A stretch of 32,000 nt of DNA from Candidatus Hermodarchaeota archaeon (GCA_048886185.1 JBHLKY010000008.1:153047-185046), one strand, 5' to 3'. Shown: positions 17,432-29,648, numbered from the stretch's first letter. Numbers and translations: made by a program. Notes: a model not told the origin generated them from the sequence alone.

Positions 17432-20400
17432 ATGAAAGGGATTTTAGCTGTTCTCAAGAAAATAGAGAACAATCCTTTCGGTGGAATTAAAGTGAAAGAA
17501 CTTCGGATTGGAATAACTCTCTTTCTCTTATTAGTATCGATATTTGCTTTCTCAACACAAAATTCTCTTTATTTTCTCCCATTTACAAATAGAGACTCTT
17601 TATCTTCTTCGTCGGGAACAGAACGGATAAACCCATTACAAAATAATTTTCCCCCACCAACCTCAACAATCCATACAGGTATAATCCCTCCCTCAAGCTT
17701 TTCATCTCGAAATAGCATAAGCGATATTGAAGATCCACTACCTCAATATTTTCCTGGGAGTAATATCCACATTAGAAATCAGTTTACCCTTGCACAATAC
17801 AATGCTACCCACAATATCGTCATAGTATGTCAGATAATATACATCTTCCTTTTTGAGAGTAGTACAGATTTACAAACAATGATTAATGAAGGTAATAGCT
17901 CTGACCCAACAACCTCACCATATTATGTTCATGAAGCTATAACCAATGGCAGTCACGCCTTGGGGTGGCCTGCAATTGTACCTGACCTGATTCTAAACCC
18001 AACTGTCGGTTTCATTGATACCATTTTTCAAATTCCAGACAGTTCCACACTCGCGAACATGGGAATAACATCTGATGATGAAGTCACAATTTTTCAATAT
18101 TACCCCGCACATAATGAAACATCAAGAATCAACATACCTATCAGTAGAACTGATAACTTTACTCTGAGTTCAGTTGCCACATTCTCAGTAGACGCCCCAG
18201 GAATAATTAATCCTAATAGTGGGGATAATACTTTTCGACAAGGCGAATTTGCAACAGCTACCCTCAGCGCTATGTCAGGAACTACTCCGATAGATAATGT
18301 CTCTGTCAGCTGTAAACTCTATTTCGCGAATGATTCAGAAGTAACGGACTCTGGCTTTTTTTATGAGCTTCGAGAAGTCTCCTTTCCTTATTCACCTAGC
18401 ACTATAACAGATTTAAACGGAGATCTAGGATTATTCTTGAATACAACTTATCCAGATTCACCTGAGGGGGATTATTACATCAACCTAACGGCTGATTTTA
18501 CAGGTACACCTTTTTATCTCATGAACAGCGAAAAAGTCATTACTATTAAGGCAAGCTTTACCGTTGAAAATGAACCAGATATCGTTGCTGACAACTTATT
18601 CACAATTAGCAATGTACAACCTGATCCAATGGATCCCCCGAACGCAAATAATACAATAGTTACTATACAAATTCAAGCTTACGATGCGTATGGAACAGGA
18701 GCATATCCCTTAGCAAACATCCCCGTAAATGCAACATTAGACATTCAAGAAGTATGGGTAGACATCAATTTTGGAGCTGCTTTCACTCCAAATGGCACAG
18801 GATGGGCTCTTACTGATCTAAACGGAGAGATAACATTTGATATAACCGCAGGATTTCCCATCCCTTATGAATTGAAAACACCAATAATTACTGTGCAGGC
18901 CGATCTACAAAGTAATTTAGCGCCTATATATCCTCCTGGGGAACCTCATCGTTTTGTAGAGAATAGTACAGGTGGAAAGATCGTTACTGAAATTAGAGTA
19001 ATTAGTATTGACCCTGATTTCTGGGTTGGTGCCATTTATCGTATTAGTAGCCCTGTTAGTATTAGACCTGGTCAAAGTACAGAATTGGAGTATGAGGTTT
19101 CTAATGCTGGTGGGCCTACTCAAAATGTCCCAGTCAAAATTACTTCACAAGAATTTATCCCAGGTGTTACTCTATTCATCAATGAGACAATTTATCCTCG
19201 TTATGATATTTATGATTACTATTATACCGATTCAAATGGAAGGATCAAAGTAACTGTATATACAACATATCTAACCACTCCTGAATATGTGAAGAACATT
19301 GCTTTGAATATTACAGCAGACTTCGAAAATGATACCGAACCACGATGGATTGGAAGCACAAATGCCATTATAGCGTTTAGTGCAACAAACATTTATGCCA
19401 ACTTTGAAAGGACTTGGACCTCAGATATTCGAACCGATGACTTAACAATCAATCCCAATTTTAATAATTGTACAATCAGTTATTTAGCCACTAATGAATC
19501 TGATACCATTATTCGTCCTGGAGACGATATCGCAGTTACTTTTCAAGTTAGAGAGGAAGGTGGAACTCGTCTTAGTAATGTTTATGTAAATATCTCACTA
19601 TCTGGCTCATATCCAGGAGTCTCCCTTGCTATCCATCCCAGTTCAGGAGCTCAAGATCCTTTGAGAGCAGATTATTACTACACTAATGCTTCTGGAATGA
19701 TAACGGTTATTATTGGCACCATATATGGCACCACTCCAAAAACACTTGATATCATTCTTGATGCAACTGCAGATTTTGAGAATGATTCATATAGTGTCTG
19801 GTATGTTGGTTCGAAAGGTCTGCGACCTGATTTCCGTTCGAATAGCTCCTACTCTGAAGGTGTAGGCTCAATAACTGTGGCTCCCCAGTATTTCATAGGA
19901 GAGATTTCTGTGAAAGGAAATCCGAAGACAATAGTTCCGCAAAATGGTACTCTGATAATCGATTTCGAGCTTCGACTTAGAGATTATAATACAGGTACCC
20001 GTATCACTCCTCCTGCTATTTTAATTGATGGTGTAAATATCTCTATCTTGATAAATAATCAAGCACCAAGTGATTTGAATATGGAAGTTACACCAACATG
20101 GAAATACTCCGAAGATAGTATTGTTACATTTATCATCAAGACAAATAATACCTCAGGTATTGCACCTGAAGGAGATTATGTAATTAATGCTGAAGCAGAT
20201 TATGGGGCTGCACAGAGCTTAATCTATAACTTTACATATAATACAGTTCCAACAGGACACCTATCGGGGATTTGGGTGAATGCTTCTGATTCTGATGGCT
20301 ATTCCAGAACCTCACAATCATTTAAAGTGCAAAATAGGGATATAATTACAGTTTTAATTAGTGAAGTGACTGACCTCTTCCATCCAGATGCGGGATTCAA

Positions 20401-22570
20401 CAGCAATGATGGTTTATATGAAATTTATAGGGGCAGTACAAATATTAACATTACTGGGACTTACGAAGATGCTACTCAAGACCCTGTGCCCGTTGATAAT
20501 ATACAAATCCTTATGAATCATTCTAAAGGATTTGAAATATTAGCATCTTCTGTAAGTGTAACTGATGGAATTTTTTCAGTGATTGTCAATTTACCACCCA
20601 CTACTCCTCTTGAGGACGGAATTGAAATTTATGGTTATGACCCAACACCACCTATACCCCCAGAAGTGAGAGTGGGCTATAATGCCACTCGAGTAGTAAC
20701 CACTGTTGATCTTAGTCATGCTATCAGTGGTTTCAACGGAGATTCTGTATTCCCAGGAGAATCCCTTTCAATACAAGGTCGACTGACTGATAACTTAGGG
20801 AATTTCATCGATTCTTCCATACCAATGTTTCAGGATTCATTCTCCGAACTCACAGGACGTCTCCGTCTTGTTGGGTGGACTGGAACAGATGAAGTCGGGG
20901 TACCATTTGAAACAACTCCAAATCCTGATGGATCCTTCGATCTGTCTTATCAAATCCCCTACAATTATACCGATGACATCTTGTTCATAAGGCTGAATAT
21001 TACCAGTCTTGGATTAATTCATTATCGTACGAATTATATCCAAACCACATCAATTAACGTTTATCATGATTTCCAAATTGAGAATCTAGAAATTTATTTC
21101 CCTGGAAATGATTCTTCGACAGGACTAACGAACAATAGCATTTATATTGTTTCAGGAATTAACAATCGAGATATCACTATTAGGGGCACTCTAGTAGATT
21201 CAATTGGGAGAAATTTAATTGAGAAACAGATAAGGACAACGTGGAACGGTAGCCCCGCTCTGGGATCCGTAAATGCTGTTGGATATTTTTCCAGGGATTA
21301 TTCATTCTCAGGATGGGAAAATAATAGTTGGATTTGGCAATTCCACCATATTTTAGATAATGGGACAATCCTATCATCATTCTATATTATCACTCTTCAC
21401 TGGGAGGTGTATGACGAAACAGAACCTTCAATTACCATTGTTGAACCCATCGCTAATTCTTCTGAAGGTGTTGTACTTCTTCGACAAAATGACACAACAA
21501 TGATTATCGTGACAGTCAGGGATCCAGACTATAATGTTGTTTCAGTTGGTTTAGACCCCACGACAGTCATGATCATTATAAATGGCACTAGCGATACCAT
21601 GGTTTCATCCGATAATACTACATTTTCTTACATGTGGGACACTTCTGATCCTGTTGACGGTTTCTATATTATCACAATTCAAGTTTCTGATTTAGCTAAT
21701 AATACAAATCAGACAGAAATTATGATTGTGTTTGATGTAAAACTTCCAACTGGAACAATTGAGGCCCTAGCAAACAGTGAAGGATATCTAATTATCGATC
21801 ATGAAACTGGAAATGCGGTAATTTCAGGGAAAATCGAAGACAAAAGTTCTATCACTGGTTGGAATTTTGGTATCGATAATGTTTCAGCTCGTTTTTATAT
21901 TCTTAATACCCAAAGGGGTATTCTCATGGTTAATTCAAGCATTTTTATAAGTGAAAACAGTTATTCATATGATTGGGGTATAATCTTCAATCCAGATGAT
22001 TTTGAACAACTTGAACGTAATGGTTCTTTCGTTGGATATGAGGAATGGACATTACGAATTACATTCAGTGATTTGGCTGGTAATTCAAACCAAACTGAAA
22101 TAATTGTGAAGCTAGATAACACCCAACCCTCCTTAAGTATTAAAGACGAGTTACCTGACAATATAGAGAAAAATTTGGTATTAAATATTACATATGAAGA
22201 TCAACATAGCGGGATCTACATAGAATCTCTTTCGATTCAGCTTCTCAACTCAACGAAAGCTTTCGTAAATGGATATACTTTTTATTCTGGAGATAACAAT
22301 TTCATAGCTGTTTCAGAAAGTGAGGCAACTATTGATTTTGATCTTTCAGGATTAAAGAAAGGTAAATATTTTGTAAGAGTAGTCATTTTTGATAATACCG
22401 GAAATAAAAAAGAGATAATTTCTGACTCCTTTAATTTTACTCCTCCCAGTCCCCCATCAAACCCGCTTATAAACATAATCCTTGTTGTTTTGTCTCCAAT
22501 TCTCGCTTTTGGTGGAGGAGTTGGAATAGCTGCGCTGTATGAACGAATAAAAGGGATAAGAAGTGCATAA
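17432..22570 (+). CDS. Giant (1712 aa) membrane-anchored surface protein with tandem Ig-like beta modules
   Basis: N-terminal hydrophobic signal-like segment (an alternative GTG start at 17492 gives MKELRIGITLFLLLVSIFAFS), T/S/D/N-rich beta modules, many NxS/T sequons, a PPSPPSNP linker, a C-terminal TM helix and a short basic tail ERIKGIRSA. Confidence 0.88.
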   Translation: MKGILAVLKKIENNPFGGIKVKELRIGITLFLLLVSIFAFSTQNSLYFLPFTNRDSLSSSSGTERINPLQNNFPPPTSTIHTGIIPPSSFSSRNSISDIEDPLPQYFPGSNIHIRNQFTLAQYNATHNIVIVCQIIYIFLFESSTDLQTMINEGNSSDPTTSPYYVHEAITNGSHALGWPAIVPDLILNPTVGFIDTIFQIPDSSTLANMGITSDDEVTIFQYYPAHNETSRINIPISRTDNFTLSSVATFSVDAPGIINPNSGDNTFRQGEFATATLSAMSGTTPIDNVSVSCKLYFANDSEVTDSGFFYELREVSFPYSPSTITDLNGDLGLFLNTTYPDSPEGDYYINLTADFTGTPFYLMNSEKVITIKASFTVENEPDIVADNLFTISNVQPDPMDPPNANNTIVTIQIQAYDAYGTGAYPLANIPVNATLDIQEVWVDINFGAAFTPNGTGWALTDLNGEITFDITAGFPIPYELKTPIITVQADLQSNLAPIYPPGEPHRFVENSTGGKIVTEIRVISIDPDFWVGAIYRISSPVSIRPGQSTELEYEVSNAGGPTQNVPVKITSQEFIPGVTLFINETIYPRYDIYDYYYTDSNGRIKVTVYTTYLTTPEYVKNIALNITADFENDTEPRWIGSTNAIIAFSATNIYANFERTWTSDIRTDDLTINPNFNNCTISYLATNESDTIIRPGDDIAVTFQVREEGGTRLSNVYVNISLSGSYPGVSLAIHPSSGAQDPLRADYYYTNASGMITVIIGTIYGTTPKTLDIILDATADFENDSYSVWYVGSKGLRPDFRSNSSYSEGVGSITVAPQYFIGEISVKGNPKTIVPQNGTLIIDFELRLRDYNTGTRITPPAILIDGVNISILINNQAPSDLNMEVTPTWKYSEDSIVTFIIKTNNTSGIAPEGDYVINAEADYGAAQSLIYNFTYNTVPTGHLSGIWVNASDSDGYSRTSQSFKVQNRDIITVLISEVTDLFHPDAGFNSNDGLYEIYRGSTNINITGTYEDATQDPVPVDNIQILMNHSKGFEILASSVSVTDGIFSVIVNLPPTTPLEDGIEIYGYDPTPPIPPEVRVGYNATRVVTTVDLSHAISGFNGDSVFPGESLSIQGRLTDNLGNFIDSSIPMFQDSFSELTGRLRLVGWTGTDEVGVPFETTPNPDGSFDLSYQIPYNYTDDILFIRLNITSLGLIHYRTNYIQTTSINVYHDFQIENLEIYFPGNDSSTGLTNNSIYIVSGINNRDITIRGTLVDSIGRNLIEKQIRTTWNGSPALGSVNAVGYFSRDYSFSGWENNSWIWQFHHILDNGTILSSFYIITLHWEVYDETEPSITIVEPIANSSEGVVLLRQNDTTMIIVTVRDPDYNVVSVGLDPTTVMIIINGTSDTMVSSDNTTFSYMWDTSDPVDGFYIITIQVSDLANNTNQTEIMIVFDVKLPTGTIEALANSEGYLIIDHETGNAVISGKIEDKSSITGWNFGIDNVSARFYILNTQRGILMVNSSIFISENSYSYDWGIIFNPDDFEQLERNGSFVGYEEWTLRITFSDLAGNSNQTEIIVKLDNTQPSLSIKDELPDNIEKNLVLNITYEDQHSGIYIESLSIQLLNSTKAFVNGYTFYSGDNNFIAVSESEATIDFDLSGLKKGKYFVRVVIFDNTGNKKEIISDSFNFTPPSPPSNPLINIILVVLSPILAFGGGVGIAALYERIKGIRSA
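18227..20210 (+). repeat. Five degenerate protein-level modules spaced about 140-150 aa apart
   Basis: Recurring motifs TDLNGDL / TDLNGEI / YYYTDSNGRI / YYYTNASGMI and NLTADF / VQADL / NITADFEND / DATADFEND / NAEADY; boundaries approximate. Confidence 0.7.
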
Positions 22571-22738
22571 CGCTTATATAAAACACAAAAAATTACAGAT
22601 GTTTCAAGATGTCTTTAAAGAAATATTATAAATATGGAATAAAATAAAGATTAAAAAATAAATGAAAACCCTAGTAATCTAGATTGGATAAGATCAGGAT
22701 AAATTCAAACTATAAATCAATTGAGAATCGTGATACGA

Positions 22739-23245
22739 ATGATTGGAATCAACTTCTTTGCTCAAGGAATATTAGATTTACTCCTCCCTATTCTAATCTT
22801 AGGCGCTTTGATTATCGCTGGCTTTTTATTGTTCTATTTTCGAGAACAAATTGTAGAAGCCTTAGGAGTAGGTGGAGTGAAAAAGACTATAACAGAACAA
22901 GAGATCGAGCAACGTCTTGTTCAAATTCGACAATTGGCTCGCCAACAGATGTTTCGGGAAGCATCAGTCTTAATGTGGCAAACAATGACTCTTGCTTCAG
23001 AGTCTTTCCTCGGTGTTGGCCGTTCACCTAACGAATCAGCACGACAACTGGGTGTTAAACTCATGAATCGTGGAGATATAGACCCCAGTGCTATTAATGC
23101 CATTGTAATGGCTTTTGAGAAGGCACGATATGGCCAAGCTCCTCTCACCACTCAGGAATTCAAGGATGGTTTATCAGGACTTCACCAATTCCTCCAAACA
23201 GCAACATCAGCCGGTAGACTCGCAGAGACACCTGAAGAATATTGA
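22739..23245 (+). CDS. DUF4129-like protein with N-terminal TM anchor
   Basis: TM LLLPILILGALIIAGFLLFYF, RSPNESARQL and FEKARYG (DUF4129-type motifs); ATG 22739 preferred to TTG 22721. Confidence 0.7.
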   Translation: MIGINFFAQGILDLLLPILILGALIIAGFLLFYFREQIVEALGVGGVKKTITEQEIEQRLVQIRQLARQQMFREASVLMWQTMTLASESFLGVGRSPNESARQLGVKLMNRGDIDPSAINAIVMAFEKARYGQAPLTTQEFKDGLSGLHQFLQTATSAGRLAETPEEY

Positions 23246-23292
23246 TCGTAAATAGAGAATAGATACTGTCATTAAAAGCTTAGTGAGATCTC

Positions 23293-25056
23293 ATGGTAGA
23301 GATAAATCGAACAACAGCAGCATTAATTATCCTTGCTATTTTCATTAGCTATCCGTTTGCAGCTGCTTTTGTATTAGGATTCCTTCCGCGAGCATTTTCT
23401 AAAAACACCACTAACTTTTCAATCTATAATGAGGAGTGGAATGGAGCTAGCAAATTCAAGGAAATGTTTGAGGAAACCTCAAATAACGCTCAAATCTCTA
23501 CTATTGTTGGTAGCAGTAATATACTCAACCGTCTAAATAATACAGAAATGAATGGATCTCTTATTATTCTTGGCCCCGCGATTCACTATGATTTCTCTGA
23601 AGCCTTAGCTATTATTATGTTCGCCATCAATGGAGGACGAGTACTAATAGCAGATGATTTTGGAACAGCAAACGATATCCTTGGAGTTTTATCTATATTT
23701 TTGGGATTTATGTCACAAGTGGATCTTCTTGACTTGGGAATGGGAAATGTGGCAGGAACGAATATATTTGGGCTAAATACAACTACTGGGATTAATGCGA
23801 CTGAGAATGGGGAGGATGAAAATTGTACATCGGCTGCAAACTTCCCAATTGCTGGAATAGCCATTAATGGTAGTCTTCTCGCTGACCAAGGCAGCTATAA
23901 TGATACACCTCTTACTCCTGTATTCAGTTCTCCCACCTCGAGTACACAAGAAGGGACTAGTTATCGCATGCCAGCACCTTGGGTCACCGATTTTACAGAA
24001 GGTTTGAGCGGTAATGGGGTAATCGGAAATTTTGCTTCAATAATTTCGATGAAAGTTAGGTATCCAAAACCGAAAAGTGAGTATGAGAATCCCAATGATT
24101 TTGATGAGTGTAATCCTGAATTTATCACGAAATGGGTTCCAATGGGAGAATTTCCAGCTTCTGCCTCAGGAGCTTATAATGAATTAGCGGATTTGGGGAT
24201 AGCTGTGCCTGATTTAGATTTCAGTCTACAAATAGCGGTATTATATAGCAGTTCCCATGCATGGCTAGAATCAAACATTGAACTTGCAAAGAGAGATGTC
24301 AATAAAATTGGTCCCAACAGCTCAAATCCTTATGAATGGGCGCACCCAAGTGTTGGTTTTCCAGTATTCGTTTATTTTCCTTTTCCTTTAGGAGGAGACA
24401 TAATTATCTGTTCTGATCCATCAATATTCATAAATAAGTACATTGATGAAGATAGAAATGATTATGACGATACTTTTGATAATAATCAATTCGCTCAAAA
24501 TGTAATCAATAAAATCATGAGAGACCGAAGAGGGCAAACAATTATATTTGATGAAGCTCATCTTGCAAATCATCCCTTATCCCCTACTTTCCCCTTAAGT
24601 CTATATCTGAAATTTCTCGATATGATAACCATGTTTCCATTGTTTGCATGGGCATTACCTTTTGCAGCAATCTTATTATCCCGGCGTTTTATGCCAAAAA
24701 GAACTCAAGCTAAACCTCTCTTATTAACTCGTGTTGAACGTTATTACGGCCGAAGTTTCTTTGCTGTAAAAATGCGCTGGTTTCTTGAATATCAACAATA
24801 TTCACGTGGCTTAGAATTAATTTATCGCCGACTAAGGCGAAATTTGATCAGACGATATAATCCTGAGGTTGAACTAACTCCTGAAATCGCCGCCACTTAC
24901 TTAGTAAATGAATTTCCTAATCGATTTACCCATAGAGGTATTACTGAAGGTTTAACAATTATTGAACAGATTATTGATAGACGAGCTACAATTTCAGAAC
25001 AAGAGTTCTTAACCCATTATCTGTTCTTGAAAGACATCGGGGTGGAGATAACTTAA
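23293..25056 (+). CDS. DUF4350-like membrane-anchored protein
   Basis: N-terminal TM; SIYNEEWNGASKF, GGRVLIADDFG, DPSIFIN and IIFDEAH motifs; a second TM and a basic helical C-terminal domain. Confidence 0.7.
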   Translation: MVEINRTTAALIILAIFISYPFAAAFVLGFLPRAFSKNTTNFSIYNEEWNGASKFKEMFEETSNNAQISTIVGSSNILNRLNNTEMNGSLIILGPAIHYDFSEALAIIMFAINGGRVLIADDFGTANDILGVLSIFLGFMSQVDLLDLGMGNVAGTNIFGLNTTTGINATENGEDENCTSAANFPIAGIAINGSLLADQGSYNDTPLTPVFSSPTSSTQEGTSYRMPAPWVTDFTEGLSGNGVIGNFASIISMKVRYPKPKSEYENPNDFDECNPEFITKWVPMGEFPASASGAYNELADLGIAVPDLDFSLQIAVLYSSSHAWLESNIELAKRDVNKIGPNSSNPYEWAHPSVGFPVFVYFPFPLGGDIIICSDPSIFINKYIDEDRNDYDDTFDNNQFAQNVINKIMRDRRGQTIIFDEAHLANHPLSPTFPLSLYLKFLDMITMFPLFAWALPFAAILLSRRFMPKRTQAKPLLLTRVERYYGRSFFAVKMRWFLEYQQYSRGLELIYRRLRRNLIRRYNPEVELTPEIAATYLVNEFPNRFTHRGITEGLTIIEQIIDRRATISEQEFLTHYLFLKDIGVEIT

Positions 25057-25094
25057 TCATAGTAAAACTAATAAACTCATAAACTAGACTAGAA

Positions 25095-26159
25095 GTGAAA
25101 GAAATGAGTAAAACCAATTTGGAAGGTAAAGACTTCACTAGTGATGATCTAACTTATGAAATGCTGGAAGTTAGCGACGTTGCTCGTGCTTACCAGCAAA
25201 TTATGGGAGAAGTTCGGAAAGTCTACATTGGAAGGACTGAAATCTTTGAAATGCTTTGGATTGCAATGTTAACTGGTAAACATGTCTATCTTGAAGGTGT
25301 TCCTGGTATTGGAAAAACTTATATGGCGGAAACCTTCTCTAAAGTTCTTGGGACTGTATATAGACGCATTCAATTCACTCCTGATATGCTTCCTTCTGAT
25401 ATTGTGGGAACTAATATTTTCAATCCAAAAACAGGAACTTTTCGTCTTAAGAAAGGCCCAATTTTTGGAAATGTGATTCTCGCAGATGAAATTAATCGGG
25501 CCCCTCCAAAAACACAATCAGCAATGCTTGAAGCTATGGCTGAACGTCAGGTTTCAATAGAAGGAGAAACTCATAAGCTCGAAAAACCTTTTGTTGTTAT
25601 GGCAACTGCAAACCCTGTTGAACAAGAAGGAACCTATCCGCTACCTGAGGCGCAATTAGACCGTTTTATGATAAAAGTCATTGTTCATCACTCTTCTCCT
25701 GACGATGAACTACGAATTATTAAATTCAAAAACGAACCCGTTCCAGCAAAAGTCAACCAAGTTGTTTCGCCACAAACTATTGTTGCAATGATGGATGTGG
25801 TCAAGAGAGTGTACGTCTGTCCTGAACTCTTGGAATTAATCCGCGACATAACTGTTTCAACACGAACAGACCCCCGTTTAGTTTTAGGATGTTCTCCCCG
25901 TGGAAGTGAAAGCCTCTTATTAGCTGGGAAAGCACGAGCTGCAATTCATGCAAGAGAATTCGTCATTCCTGATGATATTCTTTTGATGATTCCTCATATT
26001 GTTCATCATCGCCTCATTCTAAAACCTGAAGCTGAATTAGAAGGAATTACTCAGATAAGAATCGCAGAGGACATACGTGATACTTTAGTTATTCCAGTAG
26101 ATCCAATCGAAGAAGGAGCGATTTATGAGGAGTATTACGAAGAAGTATATGAAGAATAA
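25095..26159 (+). CDS. moxR: MoxR-family AAA+ ATPase (MoxR proper)
   Basis: EGVPGIGKT, RIQFTPDMLPSDIVG, DEINRAPPKTQSAMLEAM, NPVEQEGTYPLPEAQLDRF, SPRG; start GTG 25095 or ATG 25104. Confidence 0.96.
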   Translation: MKEMSKTNLEGKDFTSDDLTYEMLEVSDVARAYQQIMGEVRKVYIGRTEIFEMLWIAMLTGKHVYLEGVPGIGKTYMAETFSKVLGTVYRRIQFTPDMLPSDIVGTNIFNPKTGTFRLKKGPIFGNVILADEINRAPPKTQSAMLEAMAERQVSIEGETHKLEKPFVVMATANPVEQEGTYPLPEAQLDRFMIKVIVHHSSPDDELRIIKFKNEPVPAKVNQVVSPQTIVAMMDVVKRVYVCPELLELIRDITVSTRTDPRLVLGCSPRGSESLLLAGKARAAIHAREFVIPDDILLMIPHIVHHRLILKPEAELEGITQIRIAEDIRDTLVIPVDPIEEGAIYEEYYEEVYEE

Positions 26160-26226
26160 CTTAAGCTCAAAAATCTATACCAATTATCGATTAAAAAAAT
26201 CTAGAATCTCCTAGGAGTATAATTGA

Positions 26227-27711
26227 ATGCTTTCGTCTCGTGGAGCCTTCATAGCCATTGGAGGTATTTTATTAATCTCAGTGGGGTTAAGTGCCAAGGG
26301 TATCGGAACTGTCGCCACAATGCTTCCTATTCTATTTGGAGAACAAGGATGGGAAGCGGAAACAACTGAACCAATAGAGCCCACTGAACCCGTGAATCAA
26401 ACTATTTCGATATCTGATCTAGTCAGACCGTTTAATATCTTGAATAGCTCGCCAATTGTGGATTATGGGATGTTTTTGGGAACTCTATTACTCTTGGCAA
26501 GCGTTATTGGTCTTCCTTTCTTCCGTGTTTCAGCAAATGCCTCATTGATACGAGTAACACGTACTGTAGATCGAGAAAAAGCTTTTGCAGGCGAATATGT
26601 GCATGTAACAGTCAAAGTAGAAAATACAGGACGAAGGCGTATGGATTTTCTCGAGATATATGATGCTATTCCCGATATGTTTGAAATTGCTTTAGGTGAG
26701 AACTTTATTATAACCCAGCTTGCAGGAAGAGAAACAAAAGAATTTTCCTACATAGTTCAAGTCAGTACTCGGGGAGTTTATCGCCTTGGGCCAGTCAAGG
26801 TTATTATCCATGATAGATTAGGATTCTACTTTGAGGAGGATGTGAGACATTTCTATACTGAAATTCTTTGTTACCCCTCATATGAAGATATTCGACGAAT
26901 GGAAGCATTGAGTAAACGCCGACAACAAGGTAAGATGTTTGGAGCTCACAAAACCAAACTAAAGGGAATGGGAGATGATTTTCATGCTTTAGCACGCTAT
27001 TATCCTGGAGCTCCCTTCAAATCTCTAGATTGGAAAGCATTCAGTCGTACGGGAGAACTTATGGTAAGAGAGTTTGAATCAGAGAAAAATATTCGAATGG
27101 TTGTTTTTCTTGACCATAGTGGGAGTATGGGAGCTGGTATTCCATTTAATACTAAACTGGATTTTGCTATACGTTCGACAATGCTTGTAATGAAGATGGC
27201 TGAAGAACGCCAGGATCTTTTCGGGTTGGTTACGTTTGCCGACCGCCCGACATCATTCCTTCCTCCTGGAGGAGGAAAAGCAAAGTTTTTCCAATTATTA
27301 GAGATTCTAGCATTGGTAGAACCACAAGGCCGTTCTGATCCCTTAGCTGCTGTGGATTTTGTGATGCAAAGGGTACCAAGAGCCTCATTTTATATTTTCT
27401 TAACAGATCTTGAATCTTCTGATTCAGAAATCTTCACAGAAGCTGCAAAGCGAGCACGGGCAACAAAGAATAATATTACTGTAATATCACCATTTGGCCC
27501 GTTATTTGAGACAAAACTTAGTGATCTGACAGCAACAGAAAGAGCAATAGCGGAAGCTATATTTGAAGAATATCTTGGATATAGGAAACAAGTAGAGGAC
27601 AGATTACGGGGATTAGGAGTAGAAATCATTAATGTTGGGCCTGATGACATGCTCCCTAACGTAATTAAGACATATATGGAAGGTAAGCAAGTAGGTAAAG
27701 GAACTGTGTAA
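26227..27711 (+). CDS. DUF58 / vWA-domain protein with N-terminal TM segments
   Basis: Two N-terminal hydrophobic segments, an Ig-like segment (RGVYRLGPV), DWKAFSRTGELMVREFESE and an intact MIDAS-like DHSGS. Confidence 0.9.
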   Translation: MLSSRGAFIAIGGILLISVGLSAKGIGTVATMLPILFGEQGWEAETTEPIEPTEPVNQTISISDLVRPFNILNSSPIVDYGMFLGTLLLLASVIGLPFFRVSANASLIRVTRTVDREKAFAGEYVHVTVKVENTGRRRMDFLEIYDAIPDMFEIALGENFIITQLAGRETKEFSYIVQVSTRGVYRLGPVKVIIHDRLGFYFEEDVRHFYTEILCYPSYEDIRRMEALSKRRQQGKMFGAHKTKLKGMGDDFHALARYYPGAPFKSLDWKAFSRTGELMVREFESEKNIRMVVFLDHSGSMGAGIPFNTKLDFAIRSTMLVMKMAEERQDLFGLVTFADRPTSFLPPGGGKAKFFQLLEILALVEPQGRSDPLAAVDFVMQRVPRASFYIFLTDLESSDSEIFTEAAKRARATKNNITVISPFGPLFETKLSDLTATERAIAEAIFEEYLGYRKQVEDRLRGLGVEIINVGPDDMLPNVIKTYMEGKQVGKGTV

Positions 27712-27714
27712 TAA

Positions 27715-29091
27715 ATGCCCGCAGGACAAACAACAGCTCATTTCTTTCGAATTCTATATATTATCGTATTTGTGTTCTCATGTCTCTTGGTTATCGGTAT
27801 ACCTATCCCTATAGACAATCCAATATTAGCTACAAGTATTGATCCCTCTATGTTTGATTTTACACAGGTCTTCAATATCTTAGAGTATATAATGATAATT
27901 GTTGAGGTGTTAATTCAAGGGTTTGCATCTGTAGCCTTTCAAGTAGTTTCAATAATAGCATCAAGTAAACAGGATATCTTTCTTATTGGTGATCAGTTTT
28001 TTGAGAGAGTAGATTCTGGAGACATGATGACCACTCTCACGGCTATAGTTAATCCTGAAAATGGCTTTTTTCCTCACAGTAGTGCGATTACTCTTGATAC
28101 TTTTCTAGAGGATTTTGGGAACTTCTTTGGAGCAACTACAATCCTAATCCTTCTTCCAGTTGCTATTCTTTCAGGAATTGGCTTTCTTCGAGAGGGAGAC
28201 ACCAAACTCGCAATTTATTCATTTCTAGGATTTCAACTTATCATTATCATTGCAATCTTTACTGAAAAAATCATTGTCACTACAAAAATAGACTCCTCAA
28301 ATATATTCACAATGTTGTTCAGTCCCATTTTCACTCTTGGATTTCTATTATATCTCCTTTTAGAGATTGCTTTCCAAACATCATATACTTTAAACATAAT
28401 TGAACCTATGACAGAACGTGAAAAACGAATTCAGGAGCATCTTAAACGAATACGTACTTTTGTTCCTTTATCTGAGGAGGAAAAAGGAAAGGAACAGTCT
28501 ATCCAAAGTGTTCAATCAAAAAAATTTGATTTACTTGCAGCTAGTTATTTACGGGAACTGGTAGAAAGACGTGTGTTCAAAAAGGGAGAAGTGATGCGTG
28601 ATGCCAAATCTACGATGCGGTTGCAGTCTTACCTTGCAAGTTTGAATCAGAGTGATCCTGAAACGGATTTGAAATTAGCTGCTAAAACTGCTCAACCCGA
28701 TATTTCTGCTTTAATTAAACATTTCGTTCCAGCTATGGCTTTTCGCATCATTACGGTCACAGTTCTCGCATATGTGATCTTAGCGCCTGAATTTCTTCTT
28801 ACCCCCCTCATGGGAACTTCTTTTCCAGCCCTTCTTCAGAGTCTGGAACTAACTCAGCCTGAATTTCAAACAATAGCCATTCTCAATGTAGTCTTACTTT
28901 TCATTCTAGTTGGTGCATTATTGCATTACTTTTCAGGTGGACGAACTGGTAGGATTCTAGAACGAGTAGTTCAACAAATTGATACTTTAGTAGATTTTGA
29001 TAGAGATTCAAAACCAACAATAACTCCAAGCGAAACTAGTGAAGAAGAAGTGGAAGAACCACCTTCAGATGATGAAGAAGAGATCTCCTAA
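27715..29091 (+). CDS. Hypothetical polytopic membrane protein with a soluble insert and acidic tail
   Basis: 458 aa with several TM segments, a charged central domain and the C-terminus SEEEVEEPPSDDEEEIS; starts 3 nt after the DUF58 stop. Confidence 0.8.
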   Translation: MPAGQTTAHFFRILYIIVFVFSCLLVIGIPIPIDNPILATSIDPSMFDFTQVFNILEYIMIIVEVLIQGFASVAFQVVSIIASSKQDIFLIGDQFFERVDSGDMMTTLTAIVNPENGFFPHSSAITLDTFLEDFGNFFGATTILILLPVAILSGIGFLREGDTKLAIYSFLGFQLIIIIAIFTEKIIVTTKIDSSNIFTMLFSPIFTLGFLLYLLLEIAFQTSYTLNIIEPMTEREKRIQEHLKRIRTFVPLSEEEKGKEQSIQSVQSKKFDLLAASYLRELVERRVFKKGEVMRDAKSTMRLQSYLASLNQSDPETDLKLAAKTAQPDISALIKHFVPAMAFRIITVTVLAYVILAPEFLLTPLMGTSFPALLQSLELTQPEFQTIAILNVVLLFILVGALLHYFSGGRTGRILERVVQQIDTLVDFDRDSKPTITPSETSEEEVEEPPSDDEEEIS

Positions 29092-29114
29092 TCCGCTCAC
29101 TTGAGGAATTTTGA

Positions 29115-29648
29115 ATGGTAAAATTAGATCCTGAAAGCAGTGAAGCTAGAAAAAGAATATCTAAAGTGGTTCCCAGCTATCGGAGCTATGAAAAACAGGT
29201 GGATCGTCAATCAACTGAGACAGCAATACGAACGTATTTAGAATCACAGCTCTCAAGCTATTCTGATGATATTAAAAAGATCCAAGAAGCAGCTTTAATG
29301 AGTCAAATGATTACAACTTGGTCTGATCTAGATCGTTTGATCTCAAGCTTTTCAGATATCCGATATTTGATCCAAATGACGGAATATGGAATAAGCACCT
29401 TCTTTGACTCAAATGTAATCAAAGAATTTGATTTAAGTTATCTATATACATTAGAAAAAACCATTCTCGACATTATTGGGCGTTTAGATGATAAAATCAG
29501 CCGTTTTGATGATGCTATTGAATCTGGTATGCTCTCGGACAGCAGTCGTCTGACAAATGAAATTTTGGATGACCTTTCTGCCATTAGAGACGCATGGGAA
29601 GAACGGAGAAAGTTGATATCTGATTTTCAGAAATTAGGATTAGTTTAA
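29115..29648 (+). CDS. Conserved hypothetical helical protein
   Basis: 177 aa; VPSYRSY...IRTYL and EYGISTFFD...LSYLY resemble a recalled uncharacterised family (IPGFxGY...DYGYSGFFD...LYxYD). Confidence 0.7.
   Translation: MVKLDPESSEARKRISKVVPSYRSYEKQVDRQSTETAIRTYLESQLSSYSDDIKKIQEAALMSQMITTWSDLDRLISSFSDIRYLIQMTEYGISTFFDSNVIKEFDLSYLYTLEKTILDIIGRLDDKISRFDDAIESGMLSDSSRLTNEILDDLSAIRDAWEERRKLISDFQKLGLV

Follow-up and report, generated by a model that had tools for sequence, protein, structure and literature searches.

What is the gene for a giant beta-sandwich protein doing upstream of genes for a MoxR ATPase and its membrane partners in an Asgard archaeon? The Asgard cell surface is poorly understood and central to partner-interaction models, and the Hodarchaeales are often placed closest to eukaryotes. 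The locus lies in a window of 32,000 nucleotides (the whole stretch of DNA that was analyzed) from a Hodarchaeales archaeon (Heimdallarchaeia, Asgard). A sequence-only reading of this window had proposed that the giant occupies the place of a transglutaminase (TGase) gene and is a client to be matured or displayed by the neighboring proteins. The ORF call showed seven co-oriented ORFs on the plus strand at 17432-29648 (Table 1). The gaps from the DUF4129 gene to the coiled-coil gene were 47, 38, 67 (between moxR and the DUF58 gene), 3, and 23 nt; these and the 168-nt gap after the giant gene agreed with that reading, and its domain assignments were borne out by Pfam (DUF4129, DUF4350, AAA_3, and DUF58). 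The locus is flanked by genes for an F420 ligase, a TPR protein, an MFS transporter, and an acetyl-CoA synthetase. Because gene order and flanks were shared by about 16 genomes from the genus and the core of the locus repeats phylum-wide, the arrangement is more than chance. A scan of the locus with bacterial promoter and terminator models gave results at chance level; such models are not applicable to an archaeon.

Table 1. Features of the Hodarchaeales MoxR locus (positions counted from the first nucleotide of the window)
Feature	Position	Strand	Size and remarks
ORF1, giant beta-sandwich protein	17432-22570	+	1712 aa
Spacer between giant gene and DUF4129 gene	22571-22738	+	168 nt, AT-rich
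ORF2, small TM-DUF4129 protein	22739-23245 (open from TTG 22721)	+	168 aa
ORF3, DUF4350/arCOG01314-type protein	23293-25056	+	587 aa
ORF4, MoxR-proper AAA+ ATPase	25095-26159	+	354 aa, AAA_3
ORF5, DUF58/vWA protein	26227-27711	+	494 aa
ORF6, polytopic membrane protein	27715-29091	+	458 aa, no Pfam family
ORF7, soluble coiled-coil protein	29115-29648	+	177 aa

The giant protein starts with a TM or signal anchor (residues ~27-48), continues with an ectodomain of ~1630 aa consisting of MG/Ig-like beta-sandwiches, and ends with a Pro-rich linker, a TM segment (~1682-1700), and an 11-aa basic tail. Big_13 was its only Pfam match (2.3e-7). The protein contains 3 Cys residues and 51 N-X-S/T sequons (3.0 per 100 aa), and self-BLAST detected no internal repeats at E<=1e-3. 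An AF2 model of residues 1 to 600 showed one TM helix followed by an all-beta structure, which resembled the MG arrays of C3, TEP1, and A2M in a fold search (E ~1e-7). The giant is predicted to be a sugar-coated, membrane-anchored surface protein. In profile-profile comparisons by hhalign, it matched the proteins of family f4, in which an ectodomain is joined through a TM helix to DUF4129 (97.3%, E 1.6e-11, 308 columns), and showed no significant match to the 1231-aa proteins of family f3. The f3 and f4 proteins matched each other significantly, as did the f4 proteins and the giant. Because the homology involves common beta-sandwich repeats, orthology between the giant and the f4 proteins is mainly positional. 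The ectodomain evolves fast, with a median identity of 40% for the giant within the genus, versus about 89% (86-93%) for MoxR and 90% for the DUF58 protein.

The second gene encodes a small protein with one N-terminal TM helix and a predicted cytoplasmic DUF4129 domain (Pfam, 1.2e-6). Its start is probably the ATG at 22739: an SD-like GTGAT(A/G) lies 4 nt 5' of this codon and is kept across the genus orthologues, in 15 of the 16 aligned spacers; the sequence differs in f2, a second family of the order. The 168-nt length of the upstream gap follows from this placement. The spacer contains TATA-like runs, its 3' end is the SD-like GTGAT, and no oligo-T terminator was seen in it; a promoter that serves the module alone could lie within it. 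The DUF4129 profile found nothing meaningful among PDB sequences. The predicted complex of the DUF58 protein (residues 100-494) with the DUF4129 protein (40-168) scored 0.07 with a mark of 0.32, and was counted neither for nor against their association.

The DUF4350 protein (Pfam, 1.8e-8, with a weak ABC_transp_aux match) consists of a signal anchor, an ectodomain of ~415 aa, a TM helix, and a cytoplasmic tail of ~120 aa; all of its 11 sequons lie N-terminal of residue 345. The tail matched DUF4129 in hhalign (52%, E 1.4e-4), which is only suggestive of a DUF4129-like domain. Among prokaryotic proteins, MoxR is the one most closely related to the AAA domains of dynein and midasin. The protein encoded here matched AAA_3 (5.9e-64, 214 bits versus a cut-off of 27) and AAA_lid_2 (5.1e-17), and contains a Walker A motif (GVPGIGKT, 68-75) and a Walker B motif (VILADE). 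The DUF58 protein, which matched DUF58 (1.1e-23, 84 bits), VWA_2 (1.3e-7, 32.6 bits), and DUF11 (3.5e-4), consists of an N-terminal TM hairpin (~8-26 and ~77-95), an Ig-like (DUF11/BatD-like) domain, and a vWA domain. The MIDAS motif DxSxS of the latter is intact (DHSGS, 296-300), and neither D296 nor S300 varies among 18 sequences. With its Walker and MIDAS motifs intact and its high conservation, the MoxR/vWA machinery looks functional. Sequon density was ~0 to 0.8 per 100 aa in MoxR, the body of the DUF58 protein, the DUF4129 protein, and the polytopic protein, and high in the DUF4350 ectodomain. From the even number of TM helices, the charge distribution, and the low sequon density, we infer that the DUF58 body is cytoplasmic.

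The polytopic protein encoded by the sixth gene has ~7-8 TM helices; its middle part is a helical cytoplasmic domain, and its tail is acidic. It matched no Pfam entry at E<=0.1 and no NCBIfam family, although its alignment contains conserved motifs; the AF2 model was all-helical (pLDDT 66) and a fold search with it found no PDB match. The family is so far Asgard-only, all of its Atlas and database relatives being Asgard entries annotated as hypothetical protein. The gene was located directly 3' of the DUF58 or MoxR gene at every locus examined. With this protein as a marker, which was present in 183 of the 201 sampled genomes, nearly all sampled Asgard archaea carry the MoxR membrane module. 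The sequence-only reading had also counted the seventh gene as a member of the system. Its product, a coiled-coil protein with a weak match to NCBIfam LIMLP_15305 (E 1.1e-3), belongs to a family which is single-copy across Heimdallarchaeia. The gene adjoins the module only in the Hodarchaeales (f1 and f2) and lies elsewhere in the genome in f3-f7, so that this part of the claim did not hold; core membership is doubtful and the gene is better regarded as a lineage-specific neighbor.

To what extent is the giant tied to the module? The giant, DUF4129, DUF4350, MoxR, DUF58, and polytopic genes were contiguous, with conserved flanks, in the ~16 genus genomes, and the giant and DUF4129 genes were also adjacent in f2. 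Among 14 other Asgard families sampled, 11 encoded an Ig/MG-array protein of 0.8-2.4 kaa at the position of the giant, and the core was found 3' of the large ectoprotein in f2, f3, f4, f7, f11, f14, f17, f21, f22, f24, and f26. The linkage claimed from the sequence therefore held within and beyond the genus; unlinking in relatives, named in advance as a refuting outcome, was not what the relatives showed. Families f5, f9, and f25 have the DUF58 and polytopic genes (f5 and f9 also MoxR) without an adjacent giant, and the machine can thus exist without a neighboring ectoprotein gene. In some of the Ig/MG-array proteins, a single TM helix leads into a C-terminal DUF4129 domain; after the genes of the others comes a small DUF4129 gene. 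The fused TM and DUF4129 were found in f3, f4, f11, f17, f22, f24, and f26 (loci L093, L094, L099, L101, L102, and L103 among the fusions), the split state at L091, L092, L107, and the present locus, and both states occurred within f11. The small TM-DUF4129 protein is the counterpart of the C-terminal TM+DUF4129 tail which is fused to the giant in other families. There are two TM helices in the split form and one in the fused form; the fission was therefore not a simple cut.

These observations bear on the idea that chance alone placed the giant, as an ordinary surface or S-layer-like gene with its own transcript, beside the module. Such a neighbor could explain the AT-rich spacer with its TATA-like runs and the far faster evolution of the giant than of the module, and the module of one genome (G015) is separated by 1.4 Mb from a fragment of a giant. 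However, adjacency has been kept in the genus, in the order, and in 11 other Asgard families despite complete turnover of the ectodomain sequence, and the ectodomain has repeatedly been fused covalently to DUF4129; chance proximity is accordingly a highly improbable explanation. We rejected G015 as a counterexample to linkage: its giant (604 aa) and its DUF58 protein (from residue 225) are both truncated in a genome that is 70% complete, which resembles an assembly join and is probably one.

Next, we considered whether the giant hides a TGase domain. Pfam detected no Transglut_core in the seven locus proteins at E<=0.1, hhalign of residues 1-600 against the TGase heads of other Asgard proteins gave 2.6%, no Cys was invariant across 14 orthologues, and the predicted fold matched only MG/Ig arrays, with no TGase fold. 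A TGase was not found in the f2 orthologue of the giant either. A cryptic TGase, the presence of which had likewise been named in advance as refuting, was rejected on these four lines of evidence, and the earlier statement that the locus lacks a TGase stands. The three Transglut_core matches of the genome lie on other contigs (C11, C3, and C7), and the MoxR paralogues are on C4 and C9; a TGase supplied by the neighbor of another MoxR paralogue was therefore also rejected. The TGase-like protein on contig C3 is unlinked, has Ser at the catalytic Cys position, and lies among unrelated genes.

Outside the Hodarchaeales and one sister family, the large Asgard proteins carry Transglut_core in their extracytoplasmic part, and the catalytic Cys position was not Cys in 11 of 12 aligned domains. 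Weak matches to TgpA_N were found in the large protein of L102 and, marginally, in that of L099 (E 0.007); the present giant showed no match to TgpA_N (DUF3488) and has a single N-terminal TM-like segment. The other large proteins are giant TgpA-like proteins, whose TGase-like head is mostly noncatalytic and can be lost. Because Transglut_core, the Ig/MG array, TM, and DUF4129 make up the giant at the same position in other families, the present locus is the standard locus from which the TGase-like head has been lost and the DUF4129 domain split off. The proposal that the giant stands in for a TGase gene was right about the missing domain and wrong about simple replacement, since the giant sits in the TgpA position. 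It is best read as an ectodomain subunit in that position, not as a chance neighbor or free cargo, and the impression of an unrelated insertion into a standard locus is corrected.

The same data weigh on a role in membrane-proximal proteolysis or quality control, as inferred for the MoxR-vWA-YebA/TgpA operon (PMC3495828), in which the vWA protein recruits substrates, MoxR unfolds them, and the transglutaminase-like (TGL) peptidase cleaves. Here, either a peptidase encoded elsewhere would act in trans or the system would be a degenerate one. The frequent Transglut_core in the large proteins of most other Asgard loci and the unlinked protein on contig C3 fit this role; the missing Cys in nearly all aligned domains, the Ser in the C3 paralogue, the giant of the Hodarchaeales without any TGase-like domain, and the extracytoplasmic position of the domain, away from MoxR, make it very hard to credit.

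Altogether, we consider it likely that the locus encodes one membrane-spanning complex, an Asgard MoxR-DUF58(vWA)-TgpA system extended by DUF4350 and the Asgard-restricted polytopic protein, with the giant as the resident ectodomain subunit. Precedents are the MoxR-vWA-TgpA/YebA operon (PMC3495828), the neighborhood of DUF4350, MoxR, vWA, and Ig-like proteins (PMC5898192), and MoxR1, cited in PMC12067865 as a chaperone of the envelope enzyme RipA. The physical contacts, the direction of action, and the cellular role would be as follows. The giant would be held by its terminal TM helices, heavily N-glycosylated as its sequons suggest, and linked with the cytoplasm by way of the small TM-DUF4129 protein; in the Hodarchaeales, loss of the TGase-like head would have left the MG/Ig-like array alone. 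A MoxR hexamer and the membrane-tethered DUF58 adaptor with its vWA/MIDAS domain would operate from the cytoplasmic side, with the DUF4129 domain and the tail of the DUF4350 protein as their targets. As a result, the outer array of the giant and the DUF4350 ectodomain would be assembled, held, or switched in state. On this basis, we tentatively propose that the system may be an ATP-driven inside-out controller of a surface coat or contact structure.

The earlier interpretation of the giant as a client differs from this complex in that the giant would depend on a secretion or surface-biogenesis machine for its export, folding, or installation and be independent of it afterwards. Makarova, Galperin, and Koonin predicted a secretion or membrane-remodeling system for DUF4350, MoxR, vWA, and Ig-like surface proteins (PMC5898192, section 3.2), and the same section describes the DUF4350 ectodomain as GldG-like, GldG being part of the gliding/T9SS apparatus. 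The weak ABC_transp_aux match of the DUF4350 protein, the first place of the giant gene in the gene order, and the MoxR1-assisted export of RipA also fit. However, the supposed client is, in many Asgard families, a fusion with cytoplasmic DUF4129 that carries a TM anchor at each terminus. The locus showed no match to a channel-like or translocase family, the polytopic protein has no PDB analogue, and in f5, f9, and f25 the machine persists with no client gene beside it. Because of the DUF4129 fusion and the membrane anchors, the giant is better explained as a resident subunit, and the client claim was not upheld; we regard a secretion machine as fairly improbable.

The near-universal Asgard module ties the largest surface-protein class of these loci to a cytoplasmic AAA+/vWA machine, and its parts are now defined, including an unannotated membrane protein family. 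A broader and quite improbable reading is that of an envelope machine kept by nearly all sampled Asgard archaea, in which MoxR and its vWA adaptor are coupled, via DUF4129 tails and the polytopic protein, to a giant glycosylated array with a mostly noncatalytic TGase-like head. If such a machine organizes the Asgard surface or cell-cell contacts, it would represent a new kind of ATP-driven surface remodeling. It would also provide a concrete archaeal antecedent for the link between MoxR/TGL and dynein/ciliary TGL proposed by Zhang and Aravind (PMC3495828), and the Hodarchaeales form would show that the TGase-like head is dispensable.

Finally, we compared the locus with known systems. In the bifidobacterial PFNA cluster (pkb2-fn3-aaa_atp-duf58-tgm; PMC8430577), the MoxR and DUF58 genes likewise come immediately after a gene that encodes a large surface glycoprotein of the FN3/Ig-like type. 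PFNA differs in having a TGase gene along with a Ser/Thr kinase and in the far smaller size of its FN3 protein; it has no DUF4350, separate DUF4129 gene, or polytopic protein.

Also comparable are the Esr threat-sensing pathway of Actinomycetales, for which a 2026 preprint gives experimental data on sensing by Ig filament, MoxR, vWA, and TGase (bioRxiv 10.64898/2026.09.08.750141), and the MoxR-vWA-beta-propeller ternary conflict systems (Kaur et al. 2020; PMC7159879). In these systems, a long Ig-repeat surface protein is coupled to MoxR and vWA, the sensor is divergent while the machine is conserved, and a transglutaminase belongs to the set. By analogy, the giant could be an outside-in antenna for a ligand, virus, partner cell, or surface, relaying through the TM/DUF4129 tail to MoxR-vWA and gating a cytoplasmic response. 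The divergent ectodomain beside conserved MoxR and vWA repeats the Esr pattern, a DUF4129 domain fused to an ectodomain is a plausible signaling tail, and MoxR also matched bpMoxR (1.1e-12). However, that match (48 bits) lies far below the one to AAA_3, which marks a MoxR-proper ATPase, and Pfam detected no beta-propeller, STPK or phosphatase, FHA domain, or toxin/effector in the seven genes and flanks. The archaeal module is also near-universal, single-copy, and syntenic in a housekeeping-like context, whereas conflict systems form variable, mobile islands. An outside-in sensor is thus unlikely, although not negligible, and the giant as a resident ectodomain subunit of one complex remains our preferred reading.

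The predicted secretion/membrane-remodeling complex of archaea around arCOG01314 (DUF4350; PMC5898192) comprises, in one predicted operon, DUF4350 with a signal peptide and a C-terminal TM, MoxR, an Ig+vWA protein, and Ig-like membrane or secreted proteins. Correspondingly, the DUF4350 protein of the present locus has TM helices at 11-29 and 444-462, with MoxR and DUF58 encoded downstream and the giant Ig-like protein upstream. That description is generic, predates Asgard genomes, and has no giant TgpA-like or DUF4129 component; the membrane partner named there is arCOG02884 (pfam07760), and the polytopic protein with its ~7-8 TM helices does not match this family. The vWA protein was placed outside the cell there, whereas here the TM hairpin and the scarcity of sequons point to a body on the cytoplasmic side.

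A further close relative is the MoxR-vWA-TgpA/YebA transglutaminase-like operon described by Zhang and Aravind in 2012 (PMC3495828), which includes the TgpA of P. aeruginosa (PMC3507681). In both, MoxR-proper and a DUF58/vWA protein accompany a membrane protein with an extracytoplasmic domain; in the operon, TM and cytoplasmic DUF4129 follow that domain within the protein. Other Asgard families add to the likeness with Transglut_core and the two weak TgpA_N matches in their large proteins. At the present locus, TM and cytoplasmic DUF4129 are both present, but on a separate 168-aa protein whose gene comes directly downstream of that for the giant. The locus also differs in lacking a TGase-like domain, in an ectodomain that is a beta-sandwich array of ~1600 aa, in an N terminus with one TM helix instead of the multi-TM TgpA_N, and in the addition of DUF4350 and the Asgard-restricted polytopic protein. 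The earlier statement that no functional description of this configuration exists holds only in part, since genomic predictions are available for the neighborhood type (PMC3495828, PMC5898192, and PMC7159879) and experiments for an analogous pathway (bioRxiv 10.64898/2026.09.08.750141). Thus, the locus type had already been predicted from genomes (Zhang and Aravind 2012; Makarova et al. 2015), the function we propose for it is conditional, and the lineage-specific form without a TGase-like head is new.

The window corresponds to contig C8:153047-185046 of the source genome (4.84 Mb, 96% complete), which belongs to an archaeon of the order Hodarchaeales (Heimdallarchaeia, Asgard), and the features of its seven-gene locus are listed in the table. 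The spacings given by the sequence-only reading (47, 38, 67, 3, and 23 nt between the last six genes) were recovered in the ORF listing, and its DUF4129, DUF4350, MoxR, and DUF58 assignments were upheld by Pfam. MoxR matched MoxR-proper AAA_3 at 214 bits together with AAA_lid_2, and the DUF58 protein carried DUF58, VWA_2, and a DUF11/BatD-like Ig domain. Both the Walker motifs of MoxR and the vWA MIDAS motif of DUF58 (DHSGS, residues 296 to 300) were intact and conserved. Big_13 was the sole Pfam match of the giant protein, and the Pfam search with the polytopic protein gave no match. Genes for FtsZ, an aRF1/Pelota-like protein, a DnaG-type Toprim protein, F420 ligase, and OTCase occupied the rest of the window.

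Features of the locus in window coordinates, with evolutionary rates expressed as the median identity of the window proteins to their genus orthologues
Feature	Position	Strand	Type and length	Median identity
Giant beta-sandwich protein	17432-22570	+	ORF, 1712 aa	40%
DUF4129 protein	22721-23245	+	ORF, 174 aa	79%
Shine-Dalgarno-like element and probable DUF4129 start	22730-22741			
DUF4350 protein	23293-25056	+	ORF, 587 aa	68%
DUF4350 tail (residues 466-587)	24690-25056			
MoxR	25095-26159	+	ORF, 354 aa	89%
DUF58/vWA protein	26227-27711	+	ORF, 494 aa	90%
Polytopic protein, no family	27715-29091	+	ORF, 458 aa	73%
Coiled-coil protein	29115-29648	+	ORF, 177 aa	84%

The giant was present in 20 of the 21 genus genomes and the polytopic protein in all 21. 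In about 16 of them, the two were found on one contig with equal spacing and the same flanks, namely, F420 ligase and a TPR protein upstream and an MFS transporter and acetyl-CoA synthetase downstream. An 1816-aa giant with 26 to 30% identity was again followed by DUF4129 in f2, the second family of the order (genome G022), and likewise lacked a TGase. The proposed linkage of the giant to the MoxR module was confirmed across the genus and in f2. In another genome of the genus (G001), a 7-kb insertion (L060:9503-16639) lay between DUF4350 and a disrupted moxR, which was represented by separate 75-aa and 296-aa ORFs; the insertion encoded a classical AAA ATPase of 438 aa and a protein of 1500 aa without a Pfam family. 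In genome G015 (CP070760.1; loci L057 and L058), the giant was truncated at 604 aa at ~1.04 Mb, and the module started inside DUF58 (residue 225) at ~2.45 Mb, 1.4 Mb from the giant. Because this genome is a 70%-complete single-scaffold MAG, the separation is probably an assembly join and not real unlinking.

A phylum survey with the polytopic-protein profile from alignment A4 found this protein in 183 of 201 sampled Asgard genomes, including 85 of the 88 high-quality genomes. When 40 loci from 14 further families were annotated with profiles built for this analysis, the DUF58 and TM-protein genes were present in all loci examined, with MoxR and DUF4350 alongside in most; the exceptions were f5, without DUF4350, and f25, without MoxR and DUF4350. 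A large protein (~820 to 2377 aa) was encoded directly upstream on the same strand in 11 families (f2, f3, f4, f7, f11, f14, f17, f21, f22, f24, and f26), and none was found in this position in f5, f9, and f25. The f5 loci (L050 and L054) showed a DUF58-MoxR-TM protein order, with DUF4350, DUF4129, and a giant all absent nearby; in f25 (L100), a heparinase-like 1108-aa protein preceded DUF58 and the TM protein; and in f9 (L089), DUF4129 was the first module gene, with no large gene upstream. In these three families, the module is reduced or rearranged.

The large protein occurred in two forms. In the fused form, it terminated in one TM helix and DUF4129 (L093, 2261 aa; L099, 1852 aa; L094, 1184 aa; L101, 1242 aa; L102/L103, ~1170 aa; f3 proteins, 1231 to 1235 aa; f4 proteins, ~825 aa), and in the split form, a small TM-DUF4129 gene followed the large protein gene by a few nucleotides (L091, 2172 plus 147 aa; L092; L107). 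Both states were present in f11, and the set was divided into three parts in f14. Fusion and fission recurring in this way are classically taken as evidence that DUF4129 and the ectoprotein act as one unit.

By Pfam, the Asgard large proteins carried Transglut_core at about residues 270 to 450, followed by long arrays of CarboxypepD_reg, Big_1, Big_3_5, MG2, and MG4 domains, and a TgpA_N match was weak in L102 and marginal in L099 (E = 0.007). In f3 and f7, two adjacent genes were present, one for the TGase-bearing part and one for the Ig-array/DUF4129 part, and the f4 locus held only the Ig-array/DUF4129 gene. The large Asgard proteins represent giant forms of TgpA/YebA from the well-known MoxR-vWA-TGL operon. 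The TGase-like heads were compared in alignment A6 (L091 to L108 plus L048, columns around residues 315 to 400 of L093) at G-x-C-x-x-F-A, which we take to be the catalytic Cys motif of canonical TGase-like domains. Since Cys was kept in only 1 of 12 aligned locus-type domains (L101, f22; G-I-C-V-H-F-A), with P, D, S, G, or W in the other 11, most heads are probably noncatalytic.

A cryptic TGase in the Hodarchaeales giant was sought and rejected on five grounds, in agreement with the sequence-only reading. Pfam matched no Transglut_core in the giant at E ≤ 0.1, no invariant or near-invariant Cys was found among 14 orthologues, and the first 600 residues aligned with the Asgard TGase heads at an hhalign probability of 2.6%. 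The AF2 model (pLDDT 70) showed a single TM helix followed exclusively by beta-strands, and in the PDB it matched MG/Ig arrays, including complement C3, TEP1, A2M, and the SbsB S-layer protein. Finally, the three Transglut_core genes of the source genome were all on contigs other than C8. The best of these (G000:C3:31951-34362; L111:7952-10363) encodes an unlinked 803-aa protein with Ser at the Cys position, which was the top match of the genome to the locus-type head and had neighbors unrelated to the module. Giant residues 951 to 1296 aligned with the f4 fused proteins (hhalign 97.3%, E = 1.6e-11), and the f4 and f3 large proteins aligned at a probability of 97.6%; because beta-sandwich repeats are common, the orthology of the giant rests mainly on position. 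Altogether, it is well supported that the giant is the ectodomain subunit at the TgpA position of a conserved Asgard MoxR module and that the Hodarchaeales variant lacks the TGase and has DUF4129 split off.

The giant had a TM-like segment at each end and 51 N-X-S/T sequons (3.0 per 100 aa). All 11 sequons of the DUF4350 protein were N-terminal of residue 345, between two TM segments; the DUF58 protein had four, two of them in the N-terminal TM hairpin loop, the polytopic protein had one, and MoxR and the coiled-coil protein had none. Judging from the TM segments and sequon distribution, the giant and the DUF4350 ectodomain would be outside the cell, and DUF4129, the ~120-aa DUF4350 tail, the DUF58 Ig+vWA body, and MoxR would be inside. 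This placement of the DUF58 body differs from a previous description of the vWA protein as "likely secreted" (PMC5898192). The DUF4350 tail was weakly DUF4129-like (P0003, the window DUF4350 protein; hhalign 52%, E = 1.4e-4, 84 columns), and the giant and DUF4350 ectoproteins may share one kind of cytoplasmic docking domain. The divergence of the giant was evenly distributed over its length.

In the alignment of 16 orthologous giant-DUF4129 spacers, GTGATACGAATG contained a Shine-Dalgarno-like GTGAT(A/G) 4 nt upstream of ATG 22739, which was conserved in genus orthologues. Because this element resembles the archaeal Shine-Dalgarno core, DUF4129 probably starts at this ATG, and the conserved element suggests translation from a leadered or polycistronic mRNA. 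The 168-nt spacer was AT-rich with TATA-like runs, and inspection of its sequence revealed no oligo-T terminator. The polytopic protein was all-helical, with ~7 to 8 TM segments, a soluble helical domain in the center, and conserved LLE..FQTSY, RLQ.Y, and SLE..QPE motifs; no PDB analogue was found, and its database relatives were exclusively Asgard proteins titled "hypothetical protein." The coiled-coil protein showed a single match, near full length and weak, to NCBIfam LIMLP_15305 (Leptospira). Its family was single copy in 59 of 61 Heimdallarchaeia genomes and adjoined the MoxR module in Hodarchaeales only; it is not counted as a core member.

No paper on the Asgard system was among those listed in a literature search that paired Asgard with MoxR, DUF58, or transglutaminase. 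A neighborhood of DUF4350, MoxR, an Ig+vWA protein, and Ig-like surface proteins has been described in archaea, with a secretion or membrane-remodeling complex proposed (Makarova et al., PMC5898192, section 3.2), and membrane-proximal proteolysis has been proposed for the MoxR-vWA-YebA/TgpA operon (Zhang & Aravind, PMC3495828). Both a client/secretion role and proteolysis are less likely here, because the cytoplasmic tail is fused to the large protein in many Asgard families and the TGase is missing or inactive. The earlier proposal of a surface-protein biogenesis system is partly supported: the linkage of the giant to the module stands, and the client/secretion reading loses ground to the fused tail. 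We favor a mechanism in which MoxR and the vWA protein would act on DUF4129-type tails, thereby exerting inside-out control of a surface array; its main rival is sensing from the outside in. Among known systems, MoxR-vWA modules form ternary conflict systems (Kaur et al., PMC7159879), and in bifidobacteria, the gene for an FN3 protein is clustered with MoxR, DUF58, and a TGase (PFNA cluster, PMC8430577). For Actinomycetales, a 2026 preprint (10.64898/2026.09.08.750141) provides experimental evidence of joint epibiont sensing by MoxR, vWA, a kinase/FHA relay, an Ig-repeat filament, and a transglutaminase that keeps the filament on the surface.
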